IMG/VR virus record: IMGVR_UViG_3300025126_000012
DNA length: 64,000 bases
Source of the DNA: an uncultured virus (IMG/VR IMGVR_UViG_3300025126_000012)
Lineage: Duplodnaviria > Heunggongvirae > Uroviricota > Caudoviricetes
Reading direction: 5' to 3' (one strand)
Numbering within the stretch: position 1 is the first letter of the stretch; each line of letters begins with the position of its first letter. A program made the position numbers and the translations under genes. This document shows positions 6,225-63,936 of the stretch, in pieces. The notes beneath the pieces were generated by a model that saw nothing but the letters and a program-made list of their open reading frames with translations, searched no databases and was not told the DNA's origin.

Positions 6225-6313
6225 GCAATTAGGGTGTTTCAAATAGAGAACCTCGCTTCGGCGAGGTTTTTTGTGTCTAATAAATATGTACATAACAACC
6301 CAAGGTTAGATAC

Positions 6314-14923: not shown

Positions 14924-14955
14924 GTATTCCTCAATTAAACAACACGGTGAAGAAA

Positions 14956-15402: not shown

Positions 15403-15403
15403 A

Positions 15404-15784
15404 ATGAAAACATACGAAGTCAAGGTTCACGCTACTGGAGACAAATTCTGGTGCCTGAACGGCAAACTGCATCGTGAAGACGGTCCTGCTGTTGAATATG
15501 CTAATGGAAACAAATTCTGGTATCTGAATGGTAAACTTCACCGTGAAGCAGGCCCTGCCATTGAATTCGCCAATGGAGACAAACTCTGGTGTCTGAATGG
15601 TAAACACCACCGTGAAGACGGCCCTGCTGCTGAACATGCTAATGGAGACAAATTCTGGTATCTGAATGGTCAACTTCACCGTGAAGACAGTCCTGCTATT
15701 GAATATGCTAATGGAAACAAATACTGGTATCTGTACGATAGAGAATACACAGAAGCAAAATTCAATGCAAAAAAAGCAGCATAG
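15404..15784 (+). CDS. REDGPA-repeat protein A2 (4 repeats, no tail)
   Basis: Same family; ends FNAKKAA. Confidence 0.85.
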   Translation: MKTYEVKVHATGDKFWCLNGKLHREDGPAVEYANGNKFWYLNGKLHREAGPAIEFANGDKLWCLNGKHHREDGPAAEHANGDKFWYLNGQLHREDSPAIEYANGNKYWYLYDREYTEAKFNAKKAA

Positions 15785-15902
15785 GTGGCGTTTTCAACTA
15801 TCTCGAACAGGATTTAGATAAGTAATTGATTTATTTCGGCATTTGACATTTAATTGATGTGTGGTATAATGTATTCCTCAATTAAACAACACGGTGAAGA
15901 AA

Positions 15903-16151
15903 ATGAAAACATACGAAGTCAAGGTGCATGATAATGGCGACAACTTCTGGTATCTGAATGGTAAACACCATCGTGAGGACGGTCCTGCCATTGAAACTGC
16001 TAATGGAAACAAATATTGGTATCTGAATGGAAAACTTCACCGTGAAGACGGCCCTGCCATTGAACTTGCCTCCGGAGACAAATTCTGGTACCTGAATGGT
16101 GCAAGATATACAGAAGCAGAATTCAAGACAAAGATGTATCCTGTAAAGTAA
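15903..16151 (+). CDS. REDGPA-repeat protein A3 (2 repeats; tail cut off by GAA>TAA)
   Basis: Tail-coding DNA continues in frame to 16211. Confidence 0.8.
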   Translation: MKTYEVKVHDNGDNFWYLNGKHHREDGPAIETANGNKYWYLNGKLHREDGPAIELASGDKFWYLNGARYTEAEFKTKMYPVK

Positions 16152-16212
16152 TTGTCTGTTGCTGACATCGAAAAACTACTCGGCTTTAAAGTGAAGATTG
16201 TAAAGGAATAAA

Positions 16213-16521
16213 ATGAAAACATACGAAGTCAAGGTGCATGATAATGGAAACAAATATTGGCACCTGAATGGTAAACTTCACCGTGAAGACGGCCCTGCCA
16301 TTGAGTTTGTCAATGGAGGCAAATTCTGGTACCTGAATGGTCTGCTTCATCGTGAAGACGGCCCTGCAGCTGTATTTGCTAATGGATACAACTACTGGTA
16401 CCTGAATGGTGTAGAATACACCGAAGCAGAGTTCAATGCAAAGATGCATCCTGCAAAGGAATTGTCTGTTGCTGACATCGAAAACCTACTTGGTTTTAAA
16501 GTGAAGATTGTAAAGGAATAA
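16213..16521 (+). CDS. REDGPA-repeat protein A4 (2 repeats plus tail)
   Basis: Same family. Confidence 0.85.
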   Translation: MKTYEVKVHDNGNKYWHLNGKLHREDGPAIEFVNGGKFWYLNGLLHREDGPAAVFANGYNYWYLNGVEYTEAEFNAKMHPAKELSVADIENLLGFKVKIVKE

Positions 16522-16522
16522 A

Positions 16523-16762
16523 ATGAAAACATACGAAGTCAAGGTGCATGATAATGGCGACATTTATTGGTACCTGAATGGGCAATATCACCGTGAAGAC
16601 GGTCCGGCGATTGAATTTGCCAATGGAGACATTTATTGGTATCTGAATGGTTTAGAATACACAGAATCACAATTTAATGCAAAGATGCATCCTGTGAAGG
16701 AATTATCTATTGCTGATATCGAAAAGCTCCTTGGGTATAACGTGAAAATTGTTAAGGACTAA
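16523..16762 (+). CDS. REDGPA-repeat protein A5 (1 repeat plus tail)
   Basis: Same family. Confidence 0.85.
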   Translation: MKTYEVKVHDNGDIYWYLNGQYHREDGPAIEFANGDIYWYLNGLEYTESQFNAKMHPVKELSIADIEKLLGYNVKIVKD

Positions 16763-16763
16763 A

Positions 16764-17552
16764 ATGAAAACATACGAAGTCAATGTCCATGCTAATGGAG
16801 ACACATTTTGGAATCTGAACGGAAAACTACATCGTAAAAATGGACCGGCGGTTGAATATGCTGATGGAGACAAATTCTGGTATCGGAATGGTGAACTACA
16901 CCGTGAAGACGGTCCTGCTGCTGAATATGCTAATGGAGACAAATTCTGGTATCTGAATGGTGAACTACACCGTAAAGACGGTCCTGCTGCTGAATATGCT
17001 GATGGTTCCAAAATCTGGTACCTGAATGGTCTGCTTCATCGTGAGGACGGCCCTGCGGTTGAATATGCTAATGGAGATAAAGTCTGGTACCTGAACGGTA
17101 GCCGGCATCGTGAAGACGGTCCTGCTGCTGAATACGCTGATGGTTACAAAAGTTGGTATCTGAATGGTCAACTTCACCGTGAAGACGGTCCTGCTATTGA
17201 ACTTGCTAATGGAAACAAATACTGGTATCTGAATGGTGAACTACACCGTGAAGACGGTCCTGCTGCTGAATATGCTAATGGAGACAAATTCTGGTATCTG
17301 AATGGTGAACTACACCGTGAAGACGGTCCTGCTGCTGAATACGCTGATGGTTACAAAAGTTGGTATCTGAATGGTCAACTTCACCGTGAAGACGGTCCTG
17401 CTATTGAACTTGCTAATGGAAACAAATACTGGTATCTGAATGATGTAAGATACACCGAAGCAGAGTTCAATGCAAAGATGAATTCTGTAAAGGAATTGTC
17501 TATAGCTGACATCGAAAAGCTTCTTGGATGCAGAGTGAAGATTGTTAAGTAA
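16764..17552 (+). CDS. REDGPA-repeat protein A6 (9 repeats plus tail)
   Basis: Same family. Confidence 0.85.
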   Translation: MKTYEVNVHANGDTFWNLNGKLHRKNGPAVEYADGDKFWYRNGELHREDGPAAEYANGDKFWYLNGELHRKDGPAAEYADGSKIWYLNGLLHREDGPAVEYANGDKVWYLNGSRHREDGPAAEYADGYKSWYLNGQLHREDGPAIELANGNKYWYLNGELHREDGPAAEYANGDKFWYLNGELHREDGPAAEYADGYKSWYLNGQLHREDGPAIELANGNKYWYLNDVRYTEAEFNAKMNSVKELSIADIEKLLGCRVKIVK

Positions 17553-25060: not shown

Positions 25061-25988
25061 TCACGTCTGGAATTGCAGATGCCCTTACTGTGGAGATTCA
25101 AAAAAGAAGGCATCACTAGCAAGAGGATATTTTACCCAAAAAATGGGTGCTTTGAATTATTATTGTCATAATTGTTCAATGTCAGTATCTTTTGGTTCTT
25201 TCTTGAAATGGTTCGACCCGAATTTATTTCAAGAGTATTCATTAGAAGTCTTTAAAGAAAAGATGCATAAAGAGATTGCATTCATCGAAAAAGAACCCCC
25301 AATAACTCATCGATACATTCCTAATATATTTTCAGATTTAAAACTAGTCAGAGAATTATCAAAAGACTCTGTAGCTTATAAATTTTGTGTTGGTAGAAAA
25401 CTACCAATTGATACATTCGACATTTATTATGTCGAGAGTTTTATCAAATGGACTAGGGGGCACACTGATAAATTCAAAGATTGGTCTACAAAAGACGACC
25501 ATCCTCGAATTGTTTTACCATTTAAAACTAAAGATGGTATGATTTTTGGTTATACAGCTAGAGCACTCGATGACAAAGAAACCCACAAATATTATAGACT
25601 GATACTCGATGACACAGTGAAGGAAAAATTCTTTGGGATGGACAGACTAGATGCTACTACACAAGTGTATGTCCTTGAAGGTGAAATAGATTCTCTTATG
25701 ATTCCAAATGCTATCGCTGTATCAAATGGCAAATTACATTCTTATTTTAATAAAGATGCAATCTATATTCCAGATTGTGATATTCGTAATAAACACATCA
25801 TGAAAAATGTATCAGATATGATTGCGTTAGGACTTAAAGTTTGTATGATGCCACCAGATTTACCCGGCAAAGACCTTAATGAATTAGTTAAGCAAGGATG
25901 GACAAGTGAAGACTTAATTGATATAATTAATTCTAACACTTATGAAGGTCTAGCTGCACAATTAAACTTTAAATCATGGAAATTATAA
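24984..25988 (+). CDS. gp61: DNA primase
   Basis: NCRCPYCGDS...ARG, YYCHNC zinc finger; EG.IDS TOPRIM; KDLNE. Confidence 0.95.
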   Translation: MSKLYIAEKYLKIISPRLLRFKEKGNHVWNCRCPYCGDSKKKASLARGYFTQKMGALNYYCHNCSMSVSFGSFLKWFDPNLFQEYSLEVFKEKMHKEIAFIEKEPPITHRYIPNIFSDLKLVRELSKDSVAYKFCVGRKLPIDTFDIYYVESFIKWTRGHTDKFKDWSTKDDHPRIVLPFKTKDGMIFGYTARALDDKETHKYYRLILDDTVKEKFFGMDRLDATTQVYVLEGEIDSLMIPNAIAVSNGKLHSYFNKDAIYIPDCDIRNKHIMKNVSDMIALGLKVCMMPPDLPGKDLNELVKQGWTSEDLIDIINSNTYEGLAAQLNFKSWKL

Positions 25989-26671
25989 TGCGCATCATAC
26001 CCCCCAGTTTTGAAATACTATCCTCTACCCCAAATATGGAACTTTTAATAGAAAATGCGATAAGGTGCGCATACAAATCAGAGGATAGAATTGAAGAAGG
26101 CAGTGCAGCAAAAATCATTGAACACATAAAATCACTAAAACATGAGTCGACGCTAGAACACACCGCTATTACAGTAAAATTTATCACTGACCGCGGTGTT
26201 ACACATGAGCTCGTTAGACATCGTATCTGCTCTTTTACCCAGGAATCTACTAGGTATTGTAATTATAGTAAAGGGAAATTCGGCGGCGAAATAACTGTAA
26301 TTGAACCGTTCTTCTGGGCAGGGGGAGATGAATATTCAGAGTCGAAATACGACGTATGGAAAAATGCATGTTTATCAGCAGAGGCTATGTACCTCAGCTT
26401 ATTAGTTCAAGGTGCTAAAGCACAAGAAGCTCGTTCCGTTTTACCTAACTCTTTGAAGACTGAAATTGTAGTAACAGCGAACGTGCGGGAGTGGCGAAAG
26501 ATTTTTTCACTTCGGACATCGAAAGAGGCGCATCCGCAGATTAGGCAAATCATGTGCCCATTGCTAGGCGTTATGAGGAAGCGGTGGCCTACATTATTTT
26601 GCGATGTAGGCGACACATCACACGATAGACCAGCGCATAATTTAGAAGTTAAACATGAAAATAGGAGATAA
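25976..26671 (+). CDS. thyX: FAD-dependent thymidylate synthase
   Basis: HES.LEH, HELVRHR..SF.QESTRY, ARSVLP, AHPQIR. Confidence 0.95.
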   Translation: MEIIMRIIPPSFEILSSTPNMELLIENAIRCAYKSEDRIEEGSAAKIIEHIKSLKHESTLEHTAITVKFITDRGVTHELVRHRICSFTQESTRYCNYSKGKFGGEITVIEPFFWAGGDEYSESKYDVWKNACLSAEAMYLSLLVQGAKAQEARSVLPNSLKTEIVVTANVREWRKIFSLRTSKEAHPQIRQIMCPLLGVMRKRWPTLFCDVGDTSHDRPAHNLEVKHENRR

Positions 26672-27737: not shown

Positions 27738-30047
27738 ATGGATGTCTCTCAAACAATTCTCTCTGAAATTACAATTTTTAACAAATATGCAAGATATATC
27801 CCTGAGCTAGCTAGACGAGAAACGTGGCAAGAGCTGTGCGAGCGCAACATGTCAATGCACATTAGTAAATATCCTATTCTTAAAAAAGAAATTAAACAAG
27901 TTTATTCTGACTTTGTTCTACCGAAAAAAGTATTGCCTTCTATGCGGTCTCTTCAATTCGGTGGCAATTCAATCGAATTGTCTAATAATCGTATGTATAA
28001 TTGTGCATATTTGCCAATAGAACATACCGATGCATTCTCGGAAACAATGTTTCTATTACTGGGCGGCACAGGGGTAGGTTTCGGTATTCAGAAGCACCAA
28101 ATCGCCAAATTACCAATCGTGATTGGGCCAAAAGATAAGACTCGAAGATTCTTAATCGGTGATTCCATTGAAGGCTGGGCGGATGCAATTAAGATTTTGG
28201 TTGAAGCTTATTTTTATAATAAGTCAGACCCTGTGTTTGATTATAGAGATATTCGTCATAAAGGAGCGCGTCTAGTTACATCTGGAGGTAAAGCACCCGG
28301 CCCTGCTCCCTTGCGTATTTGTATAGAACAAATACGATCGATATTGACTAATGCGACTGGCAGAAAGTTGCAACCAATTGAAGCACATGATATACAATGC
28401 CATATTGCTGATGCAGTTTTATCTGGTGGTATTCGTAGGGCTGCTATGATTTCATTGTTTTCACATGACGATATGGACATGTTATCTAGTAAATCCGGGG
28501 CTTGGTGGGAATTGAATCCATCCCGAGGTCGTGCTAATAATTCAGTTGTGCTAGATAGAAAAAATTTGACAGAAGAAGAATTTTTTGATATATGGGAACG
28601 TGTAGAAGAATCTGGAGCGGGGGAGCCAGGTATTTTCTGGACTAATGATATAGACTGGGGAACAAATCCTTGCTGTGTTTCAGGTGATACCAAAGTTCAA
28701 GTATCATTTAATGGTTGCCCAGTGCAAACAATGAAGTCGTCTGATGTTGTAGAATTAATTAAAGATGGTAATAAAGTTGATATACTTTCATGGAATGGCG
28801 ATACTGCCATTATGCAACATGTAATTGATGGGAGATTGACTAGAAAGAATGCAGAATTGGTTAAAGTTACTGATACAATTTCTAACAATCATATAATCTG
28901 TACTCCAGACCATCGAATATTTACAGAGAATAGGGGATATGTTAGAGCAGACGAATTGTTGTCAACTGATATTTTAAAAGAATACATGCCCCCCGATTCG
29001 ATAGAGCGTGTAAGATGCAAGAATAATATGATAGTAGTAGAAAAACTCAACTATGTAGAAGATGTATATGATTTTGAAGTAGAAGGGACTCATTGCTTTT
29101 ATGCGAATGACATTTTAGTTCATAACTGTGAAATTGCGCTGAACCCCTATCAATTCTGTAATGTTACAGAAATTAATGCATCTGATATTATAGACCAGGC
29201 AGATTTAAATTCGCGTGCAAAAGCGGCGGCATTTCTAGGAACATTGCAAGCAGGTTATACTGATTTTCATTATCTTAGGGCTGAATGGGAAGAAACAACC
29301 AAACGTGAAGCATTGATTGGTGTTGGTATGACTGGTATTGCATCCGGCGCAGTATTAAACCTAGACCTGCGCGCAGCCGCGGCGGCAGTTAAAGAAGAAA
29401 ATATTCGAGTAGCTGATTTGATTGGTGTCAATCATGCCGCTCGCAATACTACTATAAAACCGAGTGGCACTACGAGCTGCGTGCTGGGGTCTTCATCCGG
29501 CATACATGCATGGCATAATGAGTTCTACGTCCGCAGGATGCGGGTAGGTAAGAATGAACCATTGTATTCATACATGAAAGATAATTTTCCTGATTTAGTA
29601 GAAGACTGCTATCATAAACCACACATTGAAGCTGTGATGTCGTTCCCTCAAAAAGCTCCAACTGGTTCAATTGTCCGAAGCGAATCATTTATGAACTTGC
29701 TAGAACGAGTCAAACGATTCAATATCGAATGGGTGCATGAGGGACATGTTGATGGAAAAAATTATCACAATGTATCTTGCACAATCTCATTGAAAGCAAA
29801 GGAATGGGGCAAATGTGGTAGATGGATGTGGAAAAATCGAGATTTCTACACTGGAATTTCTGTTCTTCCGTACGATGGTGGGACTTATATCCAGGCGCCA
29901 TTTGAAGATATTACTGAAGAAAAATATAATGAAATGATAAAAATTCTTCAACACAATATTGACTTAAGTAATGTTATTGAACATGATGATAATACTACAC
30001 TAAAAGAACAGGTTGCCTGCGCGGGTGGGCAGTGTGAATTGCACTAA
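27738..30047 (+). CDS. nrdJ: Class II (B12-dependent) ribonucleotide reductase containing a cis mini-intein
   Basis: LPSMR, YNC, GGTGVG, RRAA, TNPC/CEI, TIKPSGT, C-terminal CAGGQC. Confidence 0.92.
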   Translation: MDVSQTILSEITIFNKYARYIPELARRETWQELCERNMSMHISKYPILKKEIKQVYSDFVLPKKVLPSMRSLQFGGNSIELSNNRMYNCAYLPIEHTDAFSETMFLLLGGTGVGFGIQKHQIAKLPIVIGPKDKTRRFLIGDSIEGWADAIKILVEAYFYNKSDPVFDYRDIRHKGARLVTSGGKAPGPAPLRICIEQIRSILTNATGRKLQPIEAHDIQCHIADAVLSGGIRRAAMISLFSHDDMDMLSSKSGAWWELNPSRGRANNSVVLDRKNLTEEEFFDIWERVEESGAGEPGIFWTNDIDWGTNPCCVSGDTKVQVSFNGCPVQTMKSSDVVELIKDGNKVDILSWNGDTAIMQHVIDGRLTRKNAELVKVTDTISNNHIICTPDHRIFTENRGYVRADELLSTDILKEYMPPDSIERVRCKNNMIVVEKLNYVEDVYDFEVEGTHCFYANDILVHNCEIALNPYQFCNVTEINASDIIDQADLNSRAKAAAFLGTLQAGYTDFHYLRAEWEETTKREALIGVGMTGIASGAVLNLDLRAAAAAVKEENIRVADLIGVNHAARNTTIKPSGTTSCVLGSSSGIHAWHNEFYVRRMRVGKNEPLYSYMKDNFPDLVEDCYHKPHIEAVMSFPQKAPTGSIVRSESFMNLLERVKRFNIEWVHEGHVDGKNYHNVSCTISLKAKEWGKCGRWMWKNRDFYTGISVLPYDGGTYIQAPFEDITEEKYNEMIKILQHNIDLSNVIEHDDNTTLKEQVACAGGQCELH
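28674..29126 (+). mobile_element. Mini-intein (151 aa, no endonuclease) in nrdJ
   Basis: CVSGDT ... CTPDH ... VYDFEVEGTHCFYANDILVHN/C. Confidence 0.92.
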
Positions 30048-37919: not shown

Positions 37920-38225
37920 ATGAAAACATACGAAGTCGAGGTTCATGCTAATGGAAACAAATTCTGGTATCTGAACGGCAAGCGGAACCGCGAAGACGGC
38001 TCAACGATTGAATATGCTAATGGAGACAAAGTCTGGTTCAAAGCTGGTAAACTTCACCGTGAAGACGGTCCTGCTGTGGAATATGCTAATGGAGACAACT
38101 ACTGGTATCTGAATGGGGTAGAATACACCGAAGCAGAATTCAATGCAAAGATGCATCCTGCGAAGGAATTATCTGTTGCTGACATCGAAAAACTACTCGG
38201 TTTTAAAGTGAAGGTTGTTAAGTGA
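37920..38225 (+). CDS. REDGPA-repeat protein B2 (2 repeats plus tail)
   Basis: Same family; has its own promoter. Confidence 0.85.
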   Translation: MKTYEVEVHANGNKFWYLNGKRNREDGSTIEYANGDKVWFKAGKLHREDGPAVEYANGDNYWYLNGVEYTEAEFNAKMHPAKELSVADIEKLLGFKVKVVK

Positions 38226-38295
38226 TTGATTCATTTGGTCATTTGACATTTAATTGAGTCGTGATATACATCAATTAAACAACATGGTGAAGAAA

Positions 38296-38670
38296 ATGAA
38301 AACATACGAAGTCAAGGTTCATGAAAATGGCGACATTTATTGGTACCTGAACGGTAAACATCACCGCGAAGACGGGCCGGCGATTGAATTTGCTAATGGA
38401 GACAAATACTGGTGTATGAACGGTAAAAATCACCGCGAAGACGGCCCGGCGATTGAATTTGCTAATGGAGACAAATTCTGGTTTCTGAACGGTAAGCGCC
38501 ATCGTGAAGACGGCCCTGCTGTGGAATATGTTAATGGAGACAACTATTGGTTGTTGAATGGTGTAGAATACACCGAAGCAGAGTTCAATGCAAAGATGAA
38601 TACTGTAAAGGAATTGTCTGTTGCTGACATCGAAAAGTTACTTGGATGTAAAGTAAAGATTGTTAAGTGA
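38296..38670 (+). CDS. REDGPA-repeat protein B3 (3 repeats plus tail)
   Basis: Same family; upstream promoter copy has a deletion in the -10 region. Confidence 0.85.
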   Translation: MKTYEVKVHENGDIYWYLNGKHHREDGPAIEFANGDKYWCMNGKNHREDGPAIEFANGDKFWFLNGKRHREDGPAVEYVNGDNYWLLNGVEYTEAEFNAKMNTVKELSVADIEKLLGCKVKIVK

Positions 38671-38710
38671 TTGATGTATCATACATCTAGATGATGGAAA
38701 AGGGCTTAAA

Positions 38711-39979
38711 ATGAGTATTCTTGATATTTTGAATGAACTGACATCTACTCCTTCAACGAATGATAAAGTTAAAATTTTAGAACGAGAGAAAGATAATAAG
38801 GTACTGAAGCGAGTATTTCAAGCAGCGTATGATAAAACACTCACATACGGCATTAAAAAAATTCCTGAATACACCGAGTATGTCACCAAAATCAGTTTAG
38901 ATAAAGCAATCGATGAATTGACGGTTTTCTCTACTAGAAAATATACTGGCAATCAAGCAATTCAATATCTTTCAAATATACTTTCCAGGCTGTCTCCTGC
39001 CTCTGCAATTGTATTGGAGCGAGTAATTCAACGGGACCTTCGATGTGGAACAAGTGATACACTAGCCGCGCGAGTGTGGCCTGGCATCGTGCCTGTATTC
39101 GATGTGATGTTAGCGCACAAAGATATTTCTGGAATCAAATACCCTTGTATTGGGCAAATTAAATTCGATGGTGCAAGATGTCATTTAATTTGGGATGGCA
39201 CAAAAGCATCAGCTTGGTCCAGAAATGGCAAGGAAATTCAGACACTAGGAGTATTTGATTCCCAGATGCAAAGTGCATTTGGTGCTGAGTGCGTTACGAT
39301 TGATGGTGAATTGCTCATCGTGCGAGATGGCAAGATTATTGATAGAAAGACCGGGAATGGTATAATCAGCAAAGCCAATAAGGGAACAATTACTAAAGAA
39401 GAGGCAGATAGTATCCGTATGGTGGCATGGGACATTGTTGATGTTACTAGCAAAATTCCTTATGATGTGAGATTGCAAACTCTCACCGAGGCAATGTCGA
39501 AAGCGCTAAATCACAATATGATTATACTTGCTGAGACCCGCAGCATAAATTCTCCTGAAGAAGCGCAAAAAATGTTTGAGGAATGTATTTCACACGGGCA
39601 CGAGGGCGCCATGATGAAGAACATCAAACAGACATGGGAACCAAAACGAGTAAAGGGGATTGGTAAAATGAAGGCGGTAGAGAGTATTGAAGTGCGAATT
39701 ACTGAGATAATCGAAGGCACGGGTAAATATGCCGGGATGCTCGGCGCATTTGAATATTCTACTGATGACGGACTCATCAAAGGCAATGTAGGTTCTGGAT
39801 TTTCAGATGACCAGCGGAGGATGTTTTTTGATAAGAAATATATTGGTGAAATTATGGAGATTCTTTATAATCAACTAATCACTGATAAGAATACTAAACA
39901 ATATAGTCTGTTTTTGCCTAGGTTTGTTGATATTAGATTTGATAAAGATATCACGTCTAAATTTGAAGAAATTAAATAA
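38711..39979 (+). CDS. gp30: ATP-dependent DNA ligase
   Basis: KFDGAR, SRNGK, IDGEL, EG.M.K, VGSGF.D..R, LFLPRF..IR.DK. Confidence 0.95.
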   Translation: MSILDILNELTSTPSTNDKVKILEREKDNKVLKRVFQAAYDKTLTYGIKKIPEYTEYVTKISLDKAIDELTVFSTRKYTGNQAIQYLSNILSRLSPASAIVLERVIQRDLRCGTSDTLAARVWPGIVPVFDVMLAHKDISGIKYPCIGQIKFDGARCHLIWDGTKASAWSRNGKEIQTLGVFDSQMQSAFGAECVTIDGELLIVRDGKIIDRKTGNGIISKANKGTITKEEADSIRMVAWDIVDVTSKIPYDVRLQTLTEAMSKALNHNMIILAETRSINSPEEAQKMFEECISHGHEGAMMKNIKQTWEPKRVKGIGKMKAVESIEVRITEIIEGTGKYAGMLGAFEYSTDDGLIKGNVGSGFSDDQRRMFFDKKYIGEIMEILYNQLITDKNTKQYSLFLPRFVDIRFDKDITSKFEEIK

Positions 39980-39993
39980 TTGGATAAAACAAA

Positions 39994-40371
39994 ATGAAAA
40001 CATACGAAGTCAAGGTTCATGGTAATGGCACCACCCACTGGTACCTGAATGGTGAACACCATCGTGAAGACGGCCCTGCTGTTGAACTTGCTAATGGAAA
40101 CAAATACTGGTATCTGAACGATACACGCCATCGTGAAGACGGTCCTGCTGCTGAATATGCTGATGGTTCCAAATTCTGGTATCTGAATGGTAAATGCCAT
40201 CGTGAAGCCGGCCCTGCCATAGAACTTTCCAATGGAGATAAATTCTGGTATCTGAATGGTTTAGAATACACCGAAGCAGAATTCAATGCAAAGATGCATC
40301 CTGTGAAGGAATTGTCTGTTGCTGACATCGAAAACCTACTTGGGTATAAAGTGAAGATTGTAAAGGAATAA
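39994..40371 (+). CDS. REDGPA-repeat protein C1 (3 repeats plus tail)
   Basis: Same family. Confidence 0.85.
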   Translation: MKTYEVKVHGNGTTHWYLNGEHHREDGPAVELANGNKYWYLNDTRHREDGPAAEYADGSKFWYLNGKCHREAGPAIELSNGDKFWYLNGLEYTEAEFNAKMHPVKELSVADIENLLGYKVKIVKE

Positions 40372-40372
40372 A

Positions 40373-40888
40373 ATGAAAACATACGAAGTTAAAGTGCAAG
40401 ACAATGGTGACAAATTCTGGTACATGAATGGTAAACAACATCGTGAGGACGGTCCGGCTGTTGAACTTGCTAATGGAAACAAATATTGGTATCTGAACGA
40501 TAAGCGCCACCGTGAAGACGGTCCTGCGATTGAAAGTGCCAATGGAAACAAATTCTGGTGCCTGAACGGTAAACGCCATCGTGAGGACGGCCCTGCTGTT
40601 GAACTTGCTAATGGAAACAAATACTGGTATCTGAACGATACACGCCATCGTGAAGACGGTCCTGCTGCTGAATATGCTGATGGTTCCAAATTCTGGTATC
40701 TGAATGGTAAATGCCATCGTGAAGCCGGCCCTGCCATAGAACTTTCCAATGGAGATAAATTCTGGTATCTGAATGGTTTAGAATACACCGAAGCAGAATT
40801 CAATGCAAAGATGCATCCTGTGAAGGAATTGTCTGTTGCTGACATCGAAAACCTACTTGGGTATAACGTGAAAATTGTTAAGGACTAA
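40373..40888 (+). CDS. REDGPA-repeat protein C2 (5 repeats plus tail)
   Basis: Same family. Confidence 0.85.
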   Translation: MKTYEVKVQDNGDKFWYMNGKQHREDGPAVELANGNKYWYLNDKRHREDGPAIESANGNKFWCLNGKRHREDGPAVELANGNKYWYLNDTRHREDGPAAEYADGSKFWYLNGKCHREAGPAIELSNGDKFWYLNGLEYTEAEFNAKMHPVKELSVADIENLLGYNVKIVKD

Positions 40889-40889
40889 A

Positions 40890-41129
40890 ATGAAAACATA
40901 CGAAGTCAAGGTTCATGGTAATGGCACCAAATTCTGGTATCTGAATGGTAAACTTCACAGTGAAGCCGGCCCGGCGATTGAATATGCTACTGGAGATAAA
41001 CATTGGTGTCTGAATGGGGTAGAATGCACCGAAGCAGAATTCAATGTAAAGATGCATCCTGTGAAGGAATTGTCTGTTGCTGACATCGAAAACCTACTCG
41101 GTTTTAAAGTGAAAATTGTAAAGGAATAG
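40890..41129 (+). CDS. REDGPA-repeat protein C3 (1 repeat plus tail)
   Basis: Same family. Confidence 0.85.
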   Translation: MKTYEVKVHGNGTKFWYLNGKLHSEAGPAIEYATGDKHWCLNGVECTEAEFNVKMHPVKELSVADIENLLGFKVKIVKE

Positions 41130-41576
41130 ATGAAACCATACGAAATCAAGATTAATGATGATGGCGGCATTTATTGGTATCTGAATTGTGAATTGCATCG
41201 TGAAGACGGCCCTGCAATTGAACTTGCCAATGGAAACAAAATCTGGTTCAAAGATGGTAAACTGCATCGTGAAGACGGCCCTGCAGTAGAACTTGCTAAT
41301 GGAAACAAACATTGGTTTTTGAATGGTAAACTGCATCGTGAAGACGGCCCTGCTGCTGAATACGCCAATGGAGATAAATTCTGGTATCTGAACGGTAAAT
41401 GCCATCGTGAAGACGGCCCGGCGATTGAATATGTCGACGGAAACAAATACTGGTATCTAGATGATATAAGATACACCGAAGCAGAATTTAATGCAATGCT
41501 CAATCCAGAAAAAGAATTGTCTGTTGCTGACATCGAAAAGCTACTTGGGTATAAAGTGAAGATTGTAAAGGAATAA
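41130..41576 (+). CDS. REDGPA-repeat protein C4 (4 repeats plus tail)
   Basis: Same family. Confidence 0.85.
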   Translation: MKPYEIKINDDGGIYWYLNCELHREDGPAIELANGNKIWFKDGKLHREDGPAVELANGNKHWFLNGKLHREDGPAAEYANGDKFWYLNGKCHREDGPAIEYVDGNKYWYLDDIRYTEAEFNAMLNPEKELSVADIEKLLGYKVKIVKE

Positions 41577-41577
41577 A

Positions 41578-41955
41578 ATGAAAACATACGAAGTTAAGGT
41601 TCATGATAATGGCGACATTTATTGGTACCTGAACGGTAAATTGCACCGTGAAGACGGCCCTGCTGCTGAATATGTCGACGGAAACAAATACTGGTACCTG
41701 AACGGTAAACGCCATCGAGAAGACGGCCCGGCGATTGAATTTGCTAATGGAGATAAACACTGGTATCTGAACGATAAACTGCGGCATGAAGACGGCCCGG
41801 CGATTGAATTTGCTAATGGAGACAATTTCTGGTATCTGAATGGTGTAATATGTACCGAAGCAGAATTCAATGCAAAGATGCATCCTGTAAAGGAATTGTC
41901 TGTTGCTGACATCGAAAACCTACTTGGTTTTAAAGTGAAGATTGTAAAGGAATAA
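41578..41955 (+). CDS. REDGPA-repeat protein C5 (3 repeats plus tail)
   Basis: Same family. Confidence 0.85.
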   Translation: MKTYEVKVHDNGDIYWYLNGKLHREDGPAAEYVDGNKYWYLNGKRHREDGPAIEFANGDKHWYLNDKLRHEDGPAIEFANGDNFWYLNGVICTEAEFNAKMHPVKELSVADIENLLGFKVKIVKE

Positions 41956-43152: not shown

Positions 43153-43247
43153 GTAATTGAGTTATTATTCTTCCTCCAAAGATTCACAAATCAAAATAAT
43201 TTGATTGTTGGCTTGACATGGTTTAAAATAATAACAGGGAGATAATT

Positions 43248-44744
43248 ATGAAATTTTACACTTATTGCCAAACTCTTGGTAATTCTATATTATATAGAGG
43301 ATATGATAAGGGCCGACAAATAATCGAAAAGATTGATTTTGGCCCTACATTATTCGTTTCCACAAAAAATAGAGACGAAAAATCTTGGAATGATTTATAC
43401 AAAAACACCCCACTCGAACCAATTCAATTCAATAATATCCGAGAAGCAAAAGATTATGTAGAAATGTATAAGGATGTCCATGGGATTGAACTTCATGGCA
43501 TGACTAAGTGGAACCTTCAATATATAAATTCAAAATTTCCAGGAGATATTGAATATGATATATCACATGTAAAAATTCACACGATAGACATCGAAACAGT
43601 AGATGAGGATTCCGAAGAAGGTTTTCCTGATATTCAGGCAGCGCGCATTCCGATTGTTCTCATATCTATACACGATAATATAACAGATAAAACGGTCGTA
43701 TTAGGATTAAAAGAGTTTGATAAAGTTGAGTCTGATGCCTTTATATATAAAAAATTTGATACTGAGAAAGAACTATTAAAGTTTTTTATCGAATTTCAGA
43801 TTGCAACAAAACCAGATGTTTGGACGGGGTGGAATACATCAGGATTCGATATACCATATATGATTAATCGAATCAAACTACTATTTGATGAGACACAAGT
43901 TAAACGGCTATCGCCATTCAATTATATTCGTGAAAAGATGGTTAATATCCGTGGAAAAGAAATTCAGACGTATGAGATTTATGGTATCATAGACTTGGAT
44001 TATCTTGAACTCTATAAGAAATTCGGCACATATTCATCGAAAGAATCGTACGCATTAGGATTTATTGCCCAAGAAGAACTTGGCGAAACAAAACTTGAAT
44101 TACCAGGGGTGTCATTCAGAGATTCTTACGTAAACCACTTCGACACTTTCGTGAGATATAATGCGATAGACTCAATTCTTGTTAAGAAATTAGAAGACAA
44201 GATGAAGTTGATTGAACTTGCTTTTGCTATGGCATATATGTATCATTGCAATCTAGGAGATGTATATCGCACTGTTGCTCCATGGGAAGCATTCATCTAT
44301 CATCACTTGAATAAGAAAAAGATTGCAGTTCCGCCTCGAAAAAATGGATTGAGGGGGGATGTAGAAGGTGCATGGGTGAAAGACGGTATACAGGGCATGT
44401 ATGGATGGTGTATGTCTTTCGACTTCTCATCCCTATATCCTTCTGTTATTCGTCAATGGAACATATCGCCGGAGACATTTAGAGCACCGGAATATGATAT
44501 TAGAGCAAGAAATTTCTTGGATAATGATGCAGATGCTATTGCTGCCATTGATTATGCAAAATCAATCAATCATACAATTGCTGCAAATGGTACAATGTAT
44601 GATAAATCCAAAAAAGGATTTCTAGCAGAATTGATGGAATATTGTATGACTGGTCGTGCAATAGCTAAAAAAGAAATGCTTCGACTAGAATCGGAATATC
44701 AAATTATAGAAAGGGAAATAAGTGAACGCGCAGCGCGACCGTAG
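43248..44744 (+). CDS. gp43: DNA polymerase B, N-terminal subunit (gp43A)
   Basis: DIET exonuclease I, GWN..GFDIPY, motif A SFDFSSLYPS; ends in the fingers domain. Confidence 0.93.
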   Translation: MKFYTYCQTLGNSILYRGYDKGRQIIEKIDFGPTLFVSTKNRDEKSWNDLYKNTPLEPIQFNNIREAKDYVEMYKDVHGIELHGMTKWNLQYINSKFPGDIEYDISHVKIHTIDIETVDEDSEEGFPDIQAARIPIVLISIHDNITDKTVVLGLKEFDKVESDAFIYKKFDTEKELLKFFIEFQIATKPDVWTGWNTSGFDIPYMINRIKLLFDETQVKRLSPFNYIREKMVNIRGKEIQTYEIYGIIDLDYLELYKKFGTYSSKESYALGFIAQEELGETKLELPGVSFRDSYVNHFDTFVRYNAIDSILVKKLEDKMKLIELAFAMAYMYHCNLGDVYRTVAPWEAFIYHHLNKKKIAVPPRKNGLRGDVEGAWVKDGIQGMYGWCMSFDFSSLYPSVIRQWNISPETFRAPEYDIRARNFLDNDADAIAAIDYAKSINHTIAANGTMYDKSKKGFLAELMEYCMTGRAIAKKEMLRLESEYQIIEREISERAARP

Positions 44745-44775
44745 AGATTGGCAATAATCATTAGAAAGGAAACAT

Positions 44776-46113
44776 ATGAATTATTCAGAAATGACTTTAG
44801 ACGAGCTTTTAGAATTGAGAAATAGTAGTAGAGCAAAAATAGCAGCATTAAAAAATAAACAACTTGCATTGAAAATCGCTTAATCGTGGGCGCAATACAA
44901 AGAAATTTGTAATTGAAAACTATGTGAATTCGGTGAACATCCCAAATTGGGACAATACCGAGCCAAGCCCTAATATGGGAAGGTGTAACGACTAGGCGAA
45001 AGCCGTAGGGTCAAGTGACTCGAAGCGCATAGCACCTGTGAAGGTGAAGAGATAGTCTGTTCTGCATAGTAATATGCAGCTATATGGGATGAAATTAACG
45101 ACTTCATTTAAACACAAAAGGCGAATTCTGCATTCGGCAGCATTGGCAATGAGGGGTTCCATTATTATGATTATCGCATGGCTGAGGCGATTACACTTAC
45201 TGGTCAACTATCAGACATCCATTTGGCAAATTTGTTGAATATGAATTTCAATAAAATATTAGAAACAAAAGATGTAGATTATATTATTGCAGGCGACACT
45301 GACTCTGTGATTATTAATTGTCAGAGAATTGTAGATAAATTTGCGTCAAACAAATCGACAGGTGATGTTGTTAAATTTTTGGATGATTTCGCTAATAAAA
45401 TATGTCAACCAATTATCAATAATAGCGTCAGTGTGATTTTTGATAAAATGAATGCTTATGATAAAATAATGGGAAGTAAGAGAGAAGCAATTGCGTCAAA
45501 GATGTTATATCGAGCAAAAAAGAACTACGCAATGTATGTATATAACTCCGAAGGGGTTGCATACAATCCACCTAAACTTAAAGTAATGGGAATTGAGATT
45601 GTAAGGTCGTCTACCCCTAAATGGTGCAGAAATAAATTAAAAGAATTATTACAGTTGATGTTTGAATCAGATGAATATACTCTACGAAAGAGATTTTTGG
45701 AACTGGAGAAAGAATTCAAAACATTGCCGCCTAGTGAAGTAGCATTCCCGCGGGGAGTGAGTGATATTGGCAAATATTTTGCAAATAATGCAATTAGAAC
45801 CGGCATGACAGTACCTATGCATGTAAGGGCAGCCTGTCTGTTCAATATGAATGCAGTTAAATTCAAACAATATCAACAAATTCAAAATGGGGACAAAATA
45901 AAATTCTTATATTTGAAGATGCCAAATCCAATTAGACAAAACGTAATAGGCTTTCCTTCTAATATTGATTTGCCTCCTGAATTTAAACTGCATGGATACT
46001 TAGATTATGATACGCAGTTTGAGAAGACAGTAGAAAATGCAATGAAATCATTGACAGATTGTGCTGGCTGGAAATTGAGAGAAGAAAGTTCATTAGAATC
46101 ATTTTTTGACTGA
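44776..46113 (+). CDS. gp43: DNA polymerase B, C-terminal subunit (gp43B), join(44776..44880,45121..46113)
   Basis: Own RBS (AAGGA); splicing restores motif B QLALKIA|ANSAFG; motif C GDTDS, KKNY, KLKVMGIE. Confidence 0.88.
44881..45120 (+). ncRNA. Group I self-splicing intron (240 nt, no ORF)
   Basis: 5' exon ends in U (CGCU pairs with IGS GGCG, giving U.G); P7 strands GACUA / UAGUC; terminal G; removal restores motif B in frame. Confidence 0.9.
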
Positions 46114-46177: not shown

Positions 46178-47083
46178 ATGAGTCTATTAGACAAACTTAA
46201 AGCAGTAGGTTCAATTAAAGCAGAAACAGTAGCAGCATCAAGTTTCTTTGCTCCAAAAGATTTAGTTCAAACAAATATCCCTATTATCAACGTAGCATTT
46301 AGCGGTATACTTGATGGTGGGATAGTATCAGGTCTTACAATTCTTGCAGGACCTTCAAAACACTTCAAATCTAATCTTGGTCTTGTTTGTGTAAGTTCAT
46401 ACATGAAGAAATATAAAGAGGCCGTATGTTTATTTTATGATTCTGAGTTCGGCATTACTCCTGAATATATGTTATCGCATGGAATTGACACAGAACGAGT
46501 ATTACATATTCCACTTGAACACATCGAACAATTAAAATTTGACATCACAAAGCGCCTAGCAGAAATTAAAAAAGGTGATAAGGTAATCATTTTTATCGAT
46601 TCTATTGGCAATCTTGCGTCGAAGAAAGAAGTTGAAGATGCAGAAAATGAAAAGTCAGTAGCTGATATGACTCGAGCTAAATCACTTAAGAGTTTGTTTC
46701 GTATTATTACTCCACACCTGACAGTAAAAGATTTGCCATGTATTGCAGTCAACCACGTATATGCCGAAGTGGGACCGTTCGCGCGGACGGTCGTTAGTGG
46801 TGGGTGTTTGCTTGCAGGCACACAGTTAGAAATGGCGGACGGTCAAAAGAAGACTATTGAATCTATTAATGTAGGAGATATGGTGAATACATTAAATGGG
46901 CCTAAAAAAGTAACACATACATGGAATCCAGATACGTTGTTACACGGAACCCCAGAATGTATTAGATTTACATTTGATGATGGTTATTCAGTAACAGTTT
47001 CAGAAAATCATCCATTTTTAACATCGGAGGGGTGGGTAGAAGCAAAAAATCTCACAGAAAATCATATTTTTGTGGTTAGATGA
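46178..47083 (+). CDS. uvsX: UvsX N-extein (209 aa) plus N-intein (92 aa from Cys at 46805)
   Basis: AGPSKHFKS, YDSEFG, IDSIGNLAS, VVSGG|CLLAGT, block B SENHPF. Confidence 0.92.
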   Translation: MSLLDKLKAVGSIKAETVAASSFFAPKDLVQTNIPIINVAFSGILDGGIVSGLTILAGPSKHFKSNLGLVCVSSYMKKYKEAVCLFYDSEFGITPEYMLSHGIDTERVLHIPLEHIEQLKFDITKRLAEIKKGDKVIIFIDSIGNLASKKEVEDAENEKSVADMTRAKSLKSLFRIITPHLTVKDLPCIAVNHVYAEVGPFARTVVSGGCLLAGTQLEMADGQKKTIESINVGDMVNTLNGPKKVTHTWNPDTLLHGTPECIRFTFDDGYSVTVSENHPFLTSEGWVEAKNLTENHIFVVR

Positions 47084-47196: not shown

Positions 47197-47724
47197 ATGA
47201 AATTAATAAAGATAGAGAATGTTGGGATTAAACCAGTATATGATATATCTGTGGAAGATGTTGAGCATTATATTCTTGAAAATGGTATTGTTACACACAA
47301 TACGGGCCTCTACTATTCCTCAAATCAGATTTTCATCATCGGCAGGTCTCAAGAAAAGGCGGGAACAGAGGTGGTAGGTTATAATTTTACAATCAACATT
47401 GAAAAATCGAGATTCGTGAAAGAAAAAAGCAAACTTCAGTTTCAGGTTATGTTCGATGGTGGTATTGATAAGTATTCTGGTTTACTTGAACTTGCATTAG
47501 AAAGCGGGTTTGTTCAAAAACCTTCTAATGGTTGGTATATAAGAGTAGATAAAAATACTGGTGAGATATTGGATGAAAAGAAAGTCAGAGAAGCAGATAC
47601 TCATAATAAAACATTTTGGGCGCCGATTTTATCTAATCCAGATTTCTATAAATTCGTGAAAAATAAATTTCAATTGTCAGTTAATCCAATGAACGCGGAG
47701 GTGAAAGATGACAAAACTATATAA
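47197..47724 (+). CDS. uvsX: C-intein (35 aa) plus UvsX C-extein
   Basis: MKLIKIE..VYDISV..HY....IVTHN|TGLYYSS..KSRFVKEKS. Confidence 0.92.
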   Translation: MKLIKIENVGIKPVYDISVEDVEHYILENGIVTHNTGLYYSSNQIFIIGRSQEKAGTEVVGYNFTINIEKSRFVKEKSKLQFQVMFDGGIDKYSGLLELALESGFVQKPSNGWYIRVDKNTGEILDEKKVREADTHNKTFWAPILSNPDFYKFVKNKFQLSVNPMNAEVKDDKTI

Positions 47725-51394: not shown

Positions 51395-51693
51395 TGACTA
51401 AAATTCATGGCAGATATACAAAATTTGATACTGCAACATTAGATGATTTTATTGAGTCTAATATAGATGCAGCTCAAGTAAAAACAGAATGGGTAGGTAT
51501 GCCAGAATTCAATCAGCATAATATCGATTCTTTTGCTACTATTGTTTTTAGAGTAGTGGATGAAGAACATCTAAAAAAACTATCAGAATTGGTTGGTCAG
51601 CCATTGACACATAAAACAAAAACGGTATGGTATCCTAAACAGGGAGTTTTACCAGAACGTAGGGCATTTTATGTAGATGAGGATGATGTATGA
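51391..51693 (+). CDS. Hypothetical protein coupled to the glycosyltransferase
   Basis: EW.GMPEF..., Q.LT.KTK..WYP; ATGA overlap with the next gene. Confidence 0.65.
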   Translation: MMTKIHGRYTKFDTATLDDFIESNIDAAQVKTEWVGMPEFNQHNIDSFATIVFRVVDEEHLKKLSELVGQPLTHKTKTVWYPKQGVLPERRAFYVDEDDV

Positions 51694-52643
51694 TTGACGA
51701 ACACATGCCACAATACCCACTCTACATTGTGTCAAAAGGAAGAGCTGATAGTCGATTTACTTCCAAAACGCTAGAAGCAATGCATGTGCCATATTATATT
51801 GTCGTAGAAAAACAAGAAGTAGATATATATGAGGCAGCAATAAATCCTAAATATGGTACAGTTTTAGAACTCGACAAGAAATTTCAAGATGAATATGACA
51901 CATTTGATGATTTAGGATACACTAAGAGTAAGGGGCCAGGTCCTGCTAGAAATTTTGTATGGGAACATGCAAAATCGAATGGATTTAAACGTCACTGGGT
52001 CATGGATGATAACATCAATGGATTTTATCGATTCAATAATAACTCTAGGATAGTGTGTCTGAGTGGAGCATTATTCCGGGCAATGGAAGATTTTAATGAT
52101 AGATATACTAATCTGCCTATGTGTGGGCCTAATTATTTTTCTTTTGCTGTTCCTTGTGGCAAAAAAAATCCACCGATTATTATGAATACTCGCATTTATT
52201 CCTGTAATCTGATTGAATGCGGTACCCCTTATAGATGGAGAGGTCGTTATAACGAAGATACTGATATTTCACTTAGGATGCTGAAAGACGGCTTGTGCAC
52301 TGTACAATTTAATGCATTCTTACAGGGCAAAATCGTAACACAGGCAGTGAAAGGTGGGAATACAGCAGAATTTTATGCAAAAGAAGGAACTACACCAAAA
52401 TCTCAAATGCTTTTTGATATGCACCCAGATGTTACTAGATTGGTCACGAAATATGATAGGCCTCATCATCATGTAGATTATAATGTATTTAAGAAAAATA
52501 GATTACAACGTATCCCTGATATTATTATACCAAATAAGATAAATGAGTATGGCATGGTTTGTGTGAAAAGAGAAGAGTTAAAAGAAGAGCGCAAAGACGA
52601 TTTTATAACAAAGATGGTGAAAAACCAAAAAAAGGAAATTTAA
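51690..52643 (+). CDS. GREB1-like / TET-associated GT-A glycosyltransferase
   Basis: YP.YI.SKGR, G.GPARN, HW.MDDNI, RIYSC.LI, WRGRYNED.D.SL..L. Confidence 0.75.
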   Translation: MIDEHMPQYPLYIVSKGRADSRFTSKTLEAMHVPYYIVVEKQEVDIYEAAINPKYGTVLELDKKFQDEYDTFDDLGYTKSKGPGPARNFVWEHAKSNGFKRHWVMDDNINGFYRFNNNSRIVCLSGALFRAMEDFNDRYTNLPMCGPNYFSFAVPCGKKNPPIIMNTRIYSCNLIECGTPYRWRGRYNEDTDISLRMLKDGLCTVQFNAFLQGKIVTQAVKGGNTAEFYAKEGTTPKSQMLFDMHPDVTRLVTKYDRPHHHVDYNVFKKNRLQRIPDIIIPNKINEYGMVCVKREELKEERKDDFITKMVKNQKKEI

Positions 52644-62242: not shown

Positions 62243-62325
62243 GCCCTGATGGCGGAATTGGTAGACGCATCAGATTTAAGTCCTGACGCTTAGGCATGTC
62301 GGTTCGAGTCCGACTCGGGGTACCA
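62243..62325 (+). tRNA. tRNA-Leu(TAA)
   Basis: Cloverleaf, variable arm, TTCGA, CCA. Confidence 0.9.
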
Positions 62326-62344
62326 ACTTTGAGTTGCATATATA

Positions 62345-62420
62345 GGGCCTGTAGTTTAATGATAAAACACCGAACTCATAATTCGAGAGACTACCAGTTT
62401 GACCCTGGTCGGGCCCACCA
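62345..62420 (+). tRNA. tRNA-Met/Ile2(CAT)
   Basis: Cloverleaf, loop CTCATAA, CCA. Confidence 0.8.
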
Positions 62421-62551
62421 ATTTGGCTGAAACATATTATAAATGTCACTATGGACTAATGCCGCCGATACAACAAATGTAACAATTACAACAACGGGTT
62501 CTAAATTTACAAAAACTGCACATTAAGGAAAATAATATTATATATGATTTA

Positions 62552-62630
62552 CCGCCAGTATCACAACCGCCTTCTAAGCGGTAGCCGTGTAATTGGACCA
62601 ATGGGAGTTCGAGTCTCTCCTGGCGGACCA
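62552..62630 (+). tRNA. Atypical tRNA-Arg(TCT)-like RNA lacking a D arm
   Basis: Perfect 7-bp acceptor and 5-bp anticodon stems, T arm and CCA; only 7 nt in place of the D arm; 20-nt variable region. Confidence 0.7.
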
Positions 62631-62734
62631 AATTTGCCGACATCTACTGGTTCGAGTCCTGTCTCCGAGACCATAGAAGTTGTCTAATCGCAATATGTTT
62701 TAAGATATACCCGAGCTGAACCAAATAATGAATT

Positions 62735-62810
62735 GGGAGTATAGCTCAGCTGGAAGAGCATTCGACTTTTAATCGACAGGGTGCGAGTTCGAACCTCGCT
62801 GCTCCTACCA
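62735..62810 (+). tRNA. tRNA-Lys(TTT)
   Basis: Cloverleaf, CCA. Confidence 0.9.
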
Positions 62811-62899
62811 ATGCAATGCATGACTACACTAAGTCAGAGCATAAATTTGGGATGTTAGTGATAACGAGAGTCCTGCAAGAGGACATAGCTTTAAATAAT

Positions 62900-62973
62900 G
62901 CCCTTATCGTATAATGATATTACGGTTGACCTGTAATCAACTCATGGAGGTTTGATTCCTTCTGGGGGCACCA
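62900..62973 (+). tRNA. tRNA-Thr(TGT)
   Basis: GTTGA-CCTGTAA-TCAAC arm, CCA. Confidence 0.8.
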
Positions 62974-62992
62974 GAACAAATGTAATAAATAT

Positions 62993-63087
62993 GCTCCCCA
63001 GCATTAGTGTGCAGCGGATTTTTATAAAGTCTGGAGACTGGTCAGATAGGCTGGAACGGCACGGAGCGTAACCGTGGGGGAGTACCA
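62993..63087 (+). tRNA. Atypical tRNA-Ile(TAT)-like RNA with a long variable arm
   Basis: GCTCCCC/GGGGAGT acceptor, loop TTTATAA, T stem CACGG/CCGTG, CCA. Confidence 0.6.
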
Positions 63088-63111
63088 AACAACTTAACGC
63101 ATGTGATAAAT

Positions 63112-63197
63112 ACCCGAGTGGCGTAATGGCAGCCGCGCTGTGCTTAGAACGCAGTGTCCGTAAGGGCGTGTCGGTTCAAATCCGACCTCGGGTACCA
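63112..63197 (+). tRNA. tRNA-Leu(TAG)
   Basis: Cloverleaf with variable arm, CCA. Confidence 0.9.
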
Positions 63198-63205
63198 AAA
63201 TAATT

Positions 63206-63280
63206 GGAGATGTCATATACTGGCTATTATGCTCGGCTGTCTACCGGGACAAGACGGATCGTAACCGTTCATCTCCGCCA
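63206..63280 (+). tRNA. tRNA-Asp(GTC)
   Basis: Cloverleaf, G discriminator, CCA. Confidence 0.85.
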
Positions 63281-63286
63281 TACAAT

Positions 63287-63370
63287 GGAAGATGTGGTGC
63301 AAGGTGCAACCGGAGTTTGCTAAATTCCCGGCCAGAAAGGGCCCGACAGGTTCGATTCCTGTATCTTCCT
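63287..63370 (+). tRNA. tRNA-Ser(GCT)
   Basis: GGAGT-TTGCTAA-ATTCC, variable arm; no encoded CCA. Confidence 0.75.
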
Positions 63371-63372
63371 GT

Positions 63373-63443
63373 GCCTCGTCTGATGGACAGTGTCTAGTCT
63401 TCGAAACTGGAACAGAGCGGTTCGATACCGTTACGGGGCACCA
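63373..63443 (+). tRNA. tRNA-Arg(TCG), shortened D arm
   Basis: CTAGT-CTTCGAA-ACTGG, T arm, CCA. Confidence 0.7.
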
Positions 63444-63449
63444 AATAAT

Positions 63450-63522
63450 CGTCGTGTGGCAGAAAAGTGATGCACTGCTTTCATAATGCAGTTTCAAGCT
63501 GGCGCAATACCAGCCATGACGA
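63450..63522 (+). tRNA. tRNA-Met(CAT), degenerate
   Basis: Loop TTCATAA; atypical T loop; CCG instead of CCA. Confidence 0.65.
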
Positions 63523-63573
63523 CCGATTATTACAATTGGGCATTAGTCATCTTCTGCCAAATTCAATAATAAT

Positions 63574-63651
63574 GGTGAGTATAGCTTAATCAGTAAAGCC
63601 TCTGGCTGTGAATCAGGGAGTCCTGCGAATGCAAGTCTCGTTGCTCCCCCA
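63574..63651 (+). tRNA. tRNA-His(GTG), degenerate T arm
   Basis: G-1, loop CTGTGAA, CCA. Confidence 0.7.
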
Positions 63652-63676
63652 CAAGTTTTAGCTTTGCAAAAAATAA

Positions 63677-63751
63677 CTCTCTGAGGTGTTAATAGATGCA
63701 TGCGTGGTTTGGGACCACGAGGAGTAGGCGCGATACCTACCAGAGAGACCA
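63677..63751 (+). tRNA. tRNA-Pro(TGG)
   Basis: CGTGG-TTTGGGA-CCACG, CCA. Confidence 0.85.
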
Positions 63752-63756
63752 AAATA

Positions 63757-63828
63757 CAGTGTGTAAGTCATTGGCAGACATCCCGGCTTGGAACTGGGGA
63801 GCAGTAGGTTCGATTCCTACCACACTGA
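63757..63828 (+). tRNA. tRNA-Pro(TGG), second copy
   Basis: CCCGG-CTTGGAA-CTGGG; no CCA. Confidence 0.8.
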
Positions 63829-63865
63829 CACAAGTGAAGATGATTTTGTGTCATCTTTACACAAT

Positions 63866-63936
63866 GCGGGAGTCGTATAATGGCATTATTACAGCCTTCC
63901 AAGCTGAAGACAGGGGTTCGATTCCCCTTTCCCGCT
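63866..63936 (+). tRNA. tRNA-Gly(TCC)
   Basis: GCGGGA acceptor, loop CTTCCAA, TTCGA. Confidence 0.85.

Follow-up and report, generated by a model that had tools for sequence, protein, structure and literature searches.

Gene 43 of this uncultured virus very probably encodes a T4-like replicative family-B DNA polymerase (gp43) made of two non-covalently associated chains, the second of which, 43B, would be translated from a spliced message. The window, i.e. the whole 64,000-nt stretch of DNA that was analyzed, lies in a 129.8-kb linear virus record (IMG/VR IMGVR_UViG_3300025126_000012) that is ~73% complete, has a GC content of 36%, and contains T4-like genes for portal, major head protein, clamp, clamp loader, primase, UvsX, and helicase. 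A 600-nt stretch encompassing the break in gene 43 and the intron is identical in 10/10 loci tested, on nine distinct IMG/VR contigs that may represent one population, which excludes a single-contig assembly error for the split and the intron. Upstream of the gene for the first chain (43A) there is a candidate sigma-70-type promoter (TTGATT-17-TAAAAT, positions 43201..43229, + strand), which is weak (9/12 matches). The promoter scan returned 16 such sites vs 15.4 expected, i.e. not above chance, and the terminator scan was at chance level.

Elsewhere in the window, eight tRNA genes are clustered at 62243-63936, and a gene for a class II-type ribonucleotide reductase (27738-30047) contains a mini-intein at ~residues 330-463. 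Many short paralogous genes with an 'HREDGPA' repeat, interleaved around the DNA ligase gene, are found at 37920-41955 and ~14950-17550, and such genes are present too in L093, a close relative of the window phage. A TET-associated glycosyltransferase-like gene (51690-52643) and a divergent thymidylate-synthase-like gene (25976-26671) are also present, suggesting modified DNA bases.

The polymerase is encoded by two cistrons broken at the tip of the fingers, each of which has a start and a stop of its own. 43A (43248..44744, + strand) extends from an ATG at 43248 to a TAG ending at 44744 and encodes 498 aa comprising the 3'-5' exonuclease, palm motif A, and the first fingers helix, which is followed by a C-terminal extension of ~10 residues. 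It displays PolB exonuclease and N-terminal palm matches, and phrog_2062 (a 502-position model) matches it over the model length. The intercistronic gap (44745..44775, + strand) is only 31 nt long and contains no endonuclease gene. It harbors the ribosome-binding site of 43B, AAGGA, 5 nt ahead of the ATG at 44776, and because its length is not a multiple of 3, read-through fusion of 43A to 43B is impossible. Exon 1 of 43B (44776..44880, + strand, 35 codons) encodes a helix that forms the new N terminus (MTLDELL...), followed by the first part of motif B with the Lys that corresponds to RB69 K560. Its frame closes at a TAA at 44881. Exon 2 (45121..46113, + strand, 330 codons), which is matched by phrog_1918 (a 382-position model), encodes the remainder of motif B (ANSAFG), motif C (AGDTDS), the thumb, and the C-terminal tail. 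Removal of 44881-45120 in silico leaves an open 43B of 365 aa reading KQLALKIA|ANSAFG, in which N and F align with RB69 N564 and Y567. The anatomy that had been proposed in the sequence-only reading is therefore correct in each of these respects: gp43A stops at 44744 within the fingers (as seen from the 498-aa ORF and its domain matches), 43B starts at 44776 with a 35-codon exon (as seen from the open frame and AAGGA), the spliced motif B has a Phe at the usual Tyr, and no intein is present at the break, since Pfam finds no Hint/intein family in 43A or in either exon of 43B. The same search gave weak Hint matches in the neighboring UvsX. When exon 1 alone was used as a query against cultured phages, there was no match. 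The Phe was considered as a special feature and dismissed: Tyr occupies this position in 83/83 motif-bearing loci of our survey, but Phe is found in 18/144 broader motif-bearing representatives. A literature search for Y567F in RB69 found nothing.

The uvsX gene of the window is also split, in this case by a natural split intein. Its two parts (46178-47083 and 47197-47724) are separated by a 113-nt gap without endonuclease, the N-part ending with a Hint-like domain (GG|CLLAG...) and the C-part starting with IntC (...VTHN|TG), and PHROGs families exist for both halves (phrog_8337 and phrog_18112). In L093, uvsX (5309-7799) is intein-split as well, ~10 codons upstream of the site in the window, and a 333-aa endonuclease-like gene separates the two halves in a 'fractured gene' layout. 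These sister phages have different split inteins within uvsX.

The sequence interrupting motif B (44881..45120, + strand) is an ORF-less group I intron of 240 nt, which begins with TAA and ends with G45120. Rfam Intron_gpI matches positions 44871-45079 with 93.9 bits (gathering 50, E 7e-23), and this is the sole intron match in the window and in the whole 130-kb record. Folding of the region gives a z of -3.74, a value equaled by 0/200 shuffles. P1 (44877-80 with 44889-92), P2, P3, P4, P5, P6/6a, P7 (44988-94 with 45053-58), P7.1, P7.2, P8, P9.0, P9, and P9.2 could all be drawn on the window, and the catalytic core (P3, P4, P6, P7, and P8, with the G-binding pair in P7) is present. Across five introns (those of the window, of the related loci L014 and L142, and of the Escherichia phages vB_EcoM_G2285 and PSD2002), pairing at the 54 core pairs compared is retained in 99.3% of cells, and 21 of these pairs vary on both sides. 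This count omits P1, P2, P9.0, and the outer pairs of P5, where the alignment is unreliable. None of 500 shuffles was as good. Slid controls reached 31-41%, a contrast inflated by the fact that the window itself supplied the sequence on which the structure was drawn. Group IA2 introns are defined by the presence of P7.1 and P7.2 as additional stems between P7 and P3'. Both stems are present, with both-side changes in 2/3 and 4/5 of their pairs, respectively, so the intron is of the IA2 type. Its 3' half is ~73% identical to that of the td intron of T4, which we take to be a group IA2 intron, and the layout of P7-P7.2, P9, and P9.2 is the same, but, unlike td, it has no intron-encoded endonuclease. 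The P9.1 region is 8 nt shorter than in G2285 and PSD2002. Searches with intron-core patterns added L142 as the only PolB case, the remaining matches being introns of other genes. Related ORF-less group I introns were observed in three high-GC viral contigs (L126, L137, and L141) near the start of a ~600-codon phage gene, perhaps encoding the tail sheath.

Seven in-frame U/G pairs could serve as splice junctions, two of which give a 240-nt intron. Of these two, the junction ATCGCT|GCGAAT (KIA|AN) is preferred on the basis of its U.G register, of compensatory P1 pairs in L014, and of the Ala-Asn of intact relatives. In this register, the last base of exon 1 forms the 5' splice-site wobble (U44880.G44889) and G45120 is the terminal intron G. 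In the window, L014, and L142 alike, the last exon U is opposite intron G9, and P1 of L014 is preserved by two compensatory pairs. The corresponding motif in intact relatives reads KVM-ANAAYG (L011/L093, which share the codons GCG AAT with exon 2 of the window), KIG-ANACYG (L012/L013), or KIA-ANSCYG (P0001). A shift of both splice sites by one base, joining U44881 to C45122 and yielding KIA-SNSAFG, would likewise produce an in-frame 240-nt intron with a terminal G, and U44881 could wobble with G44888. We nevertheless consider this very unlikely, because it is the register at position 9 that is kept in the three introns, whereas position 8 is an A in L014, where the rival pairing of U+1 is U-A rather than U.G, and because every close intact relative has an Ala preceding the Asn. 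By inspection, P10 would comprise ~4 pairs with one skipped base in the window and 2 in L014. Searches with DNA patterns of the junctions returned 16 stretches for the 3' side (window copies, the contig of L014, and six chance matches) and 11 for the 5' side (nine window copies, the contig of L014, and one chance match). The claims made about the intron from the letters alone thus withstood scrutiny: the suggested search with Intron_gpI gave a match, a 240-nt group I intron opening with TAA is seen in both the Rfam match and the pairing analysis, and the predicted junction is supported by P1 covariation and the relatives' Ala-Asn. A dependence of 43B on splicing is likewise supported, since the TAA at 44881 closes exon 1 and motif B would be whole only when the exons are joined.

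We surveyed 85 non-identical loci (some contigs being counted twice), 83 of which have a visible motif B. Among the 83, 77 are intact by pattern and one more (L056) on inspection, two are truncated at contig ends, L014 is split with an intron, and L053 and L083 are split without one. Neither a split nor an intron is present in the nearest relatives of the window, i.e. L011/L093 (86% identical), P0001 (78% over exon 2), and L012/L013 (67%), all three of which have the same short tip of the fingers, LLP[KR]IAA. L014, which is only 48% identical overall, displays the same break, similar new chain ends, and an intron at exactly the same site as in the window (183/240 identical), but has a 111-codon ORF in the gap between 43A and 43B. 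L142 also has the break in the same place, similar new ends, and a related intron (186/240 identical), with two differences: a reverse-strand HNH gene occupies the gap and the intron lies 9 nt downstream. In L053 (1116-1382) and L083 (589-867), the gap contains a small ORF with a weak DUF6948 match. More broadly, 16 of the best 150 representatives are 43B-like proteins starting 28-55 residues ahead of the Asn of motif B, although some of these starts may be mis-called. In most of the 16, the helix begins with a similar (S/T)xxEL. The N terminus of one representative (P0046) reads like the translated 3' end of an intron directly before AN, a hint that it may be a third same-site case; a DNA search for it found only a 39% relative.

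The sequence-only reading had described the combination of a split polymerase gene with an ORF-less intron as unusual, and this does not hold. In Aeromonas phage 25, RefSeq (NC_008208) lists a homing endonuclease in addition to 43A and to a 43B 'split by group IA2 intron', a layout published in 2010 (Petrov, Ratnayaka and Karam) and known to us through reviews. These describe gp43 in two genes in several T4-like phages (PMC2677866), report for phage 25 that 43A and 43B co-purify and are active (PMC2988022), and state that its 43B intron, which lacks an endonuclease of its own, is predicted to rely on a free-standing enzyme (PMC2993671). As in the window, the break in phage 25 is at the fingers tip, 43A has 498 aa and ends in register, 43B is separate with a lengthened N-terminal helix, there is no intein, and an ORF-less group IA2 intron opening with TAA lies in motif B. 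By our own reading of its boundaries, that intron (25.g43B) interrupts the Leu codon of YGAL, at a position 22 nt downstream of the one used in the window, and is 347 nt long vs 240 nt. In addition, a GIY-YIG-like gene, seg43(25), is found between A and B instead of a 31-nt gap, and the two polymerases belong to distant clades. The original work on the assembly of A and B reportedly used Aeromonas phage 44RR. In this phage, as in the window, 43A and 43B are parted by a short untranslated gap alone (PMC2988022), and the description there, by which 44RR is known to us, mentions no intron, unlike in the window. The best cultured-phage matches to the intron (~73% over 200 nt) are in phages G2285 (MK327933) and PSD2002 (OK335775), which also have an ORF-less intron in gp43 motif B, but inside the Leu codon of YGAL as in phage 25, again by our own boundary reading. 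G2285, which thus already has a split gene 43 with an ORF-less 43B intron, differs further by a GIY-YIG-like gene between A and B, and PSD2002 is unsplit. The intron of JSE gene 43 was considered as a same-site case and set aside, as it is at motif A, a different place. In the portion of the literature covered by our search, to which Petrov et al. 2010 does not belong, we found no mention of the window's insertion site. This site is shared with one distant metagenomic phage (L014) and is absent from the cultured phages examined here. What is new relative to the known layout is therefore the exact position of the intron, the lack of an endonuclease gene between A and B, and the existence of a close intact sister.

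Group I introns are removed by a standard two-step route initiated by guanosine. In the system we propose, a shared mRNA would be translated into 43A (498 aa), and the 240-nt IA2 intron would excise itself by this route, joining U44880 to G45121. Only the spliced message would give the full 365-aa 43B with an intact motif B, whereas unspliced RNA would yield a 35-aa peptide ending at the first codon of the intron. 43A and 43B would then assemble without a covalent link, by analogy with the phage 25 proteins (PMC2988022). Both new ends are lengthened amphipathic helices at the fingers tip, which probably form an antiparallel pair that helps to hold the halves together. Mobility of the intron would require an endonuclease acting in trans, and such a mobilizing enzyme is hypothetical. 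Searches of the ~73% complete record for GIY-YIG and HNH_3 found none, and for HNH two matches. Two tandem endonuclease-like genes (5199-6224 and 6314-7822) are present between the major head gene and a tail-tube-like gene. The HNH protein encoded at 5199-6224, next to the capsid gene, is one of the two HNH matches and belongs to phrog_655, the family of the gap gene in L142, but is only 24% identical to the latter. These searches identified no trans-acting endonuclease.

Two other readings of this locus were also weighed. Gene callers yield a 311-aa protein from an internal ATG at 45178, as would be expected if the polymerase were decaying or mis-assembled and 43B were made from that ATG or absent. 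This is almost certainly wrong: the 311-aa protein lacks motif B, every frame is open, pairing of the intron core is complete, nine contigs have identical DNA here, and distant phages display the same layout. Alternatively, the intron could be a control point at which splicing rate or guanosine level gates the supply of polymerase, which would explain why related introns occupy three sites within 22 nt in motif B and why a stop codon opens the intron. We regard this as highly improbable, because such introns usually survive by inserting into a critical motif, as stated in PMC2988022, the nearest relatives are intronless, and split forms without an intron exist (L053 and L083).

As for the history of the two-chain gene, the split and the intron were probably gained late and laterally, a scenario favored by the fact that the closest relatives are intact while the new chain ends resemble those of L014, which is 48% identical. 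In a tree built without the junction columns, intact L011 is placed as the sister of the window (support 100), followed by intact L012, and the seven split rows of the 53-row tree require five changes. Trees constrained to group the window with L014, or with L014 and L142, were rejected (AU p 2e-4 and 2e-33, respectively; test on 17 of the 53 rows, again without the junction columns). The tail of 43A matches L014 at 17/26 residues (L093 10/26 and L013 12/26), and the head of 43B matches it at 20/22 nt, a level reached in 3/2504 windows compared. The lateral signal is short (~45 residues), and a single transferred block does not fit, because exon-1 residues 20-32 are closer to those of intact L093 (12/13) than to those of L014 (8/13), which implies two events or later recombination. 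Around the intron, 5/9 residues diverge from L093 (binomial p 0.005, for a segment chosen by eye), an argument that is weakened by the fact that intact P0001 already has KIAANS. The new chain ends align in register with the long helices in the fingers of phage 25 and of unsplit PSD2002, so they may also have converged in response to a structural need. On the other hand, the split and intron could be old in the clade and vertically inherited, with L011, P0001, and L012 each re-fused through recombination that brought in an intact allele. L014+L142, the sister group, is indeed split and intron-bearing, and the introns of the window and L014 are just 183/240 identical, so that any transfer would have come from an unsampled donor. 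We nonetheless judge an old split rather unlikely, since it needs three separate re-fusions, each restoring the tip LLP[KR]IAA, when a single gain on the short branch of the window (0.08 changes per site) would suffice. Within the late lateral gain that we favor, the A-tail, gap, and B-head might constitute a portable 'splitting module' recombining in one step into an intact short-fingered polymerase gene, with one intron lineage occupying three motif-B sites within 22 nt, an idea that we advance tentatively and hold to have slightly less than an even chance of being right. Such a module would provide a stop, a ribosome-binding site, and a start of its own, together with a pair of complementary helices.

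As a system, this polymerase adds little, because a split gp43 with an ORF-less 43B intron has been known since 2010. For annotation, a 35-codon exon is easily overlooked, and gene callers then give a 43B without motif B. The value of the locus is comparative, in that it offers a new intron site, a cassette without endonuclease, and a very close intact relative, the latter making the origin and assembly of split polymerases easier to test. If the splitting module is real, the window and its intact sister (86% identical) would offer a natural before/after comparison of how an essential enzyme is split without passing through a dead intermediate, and gp43 and uvsX of the window would both represent the end stage reached after loss of the endonuclease.
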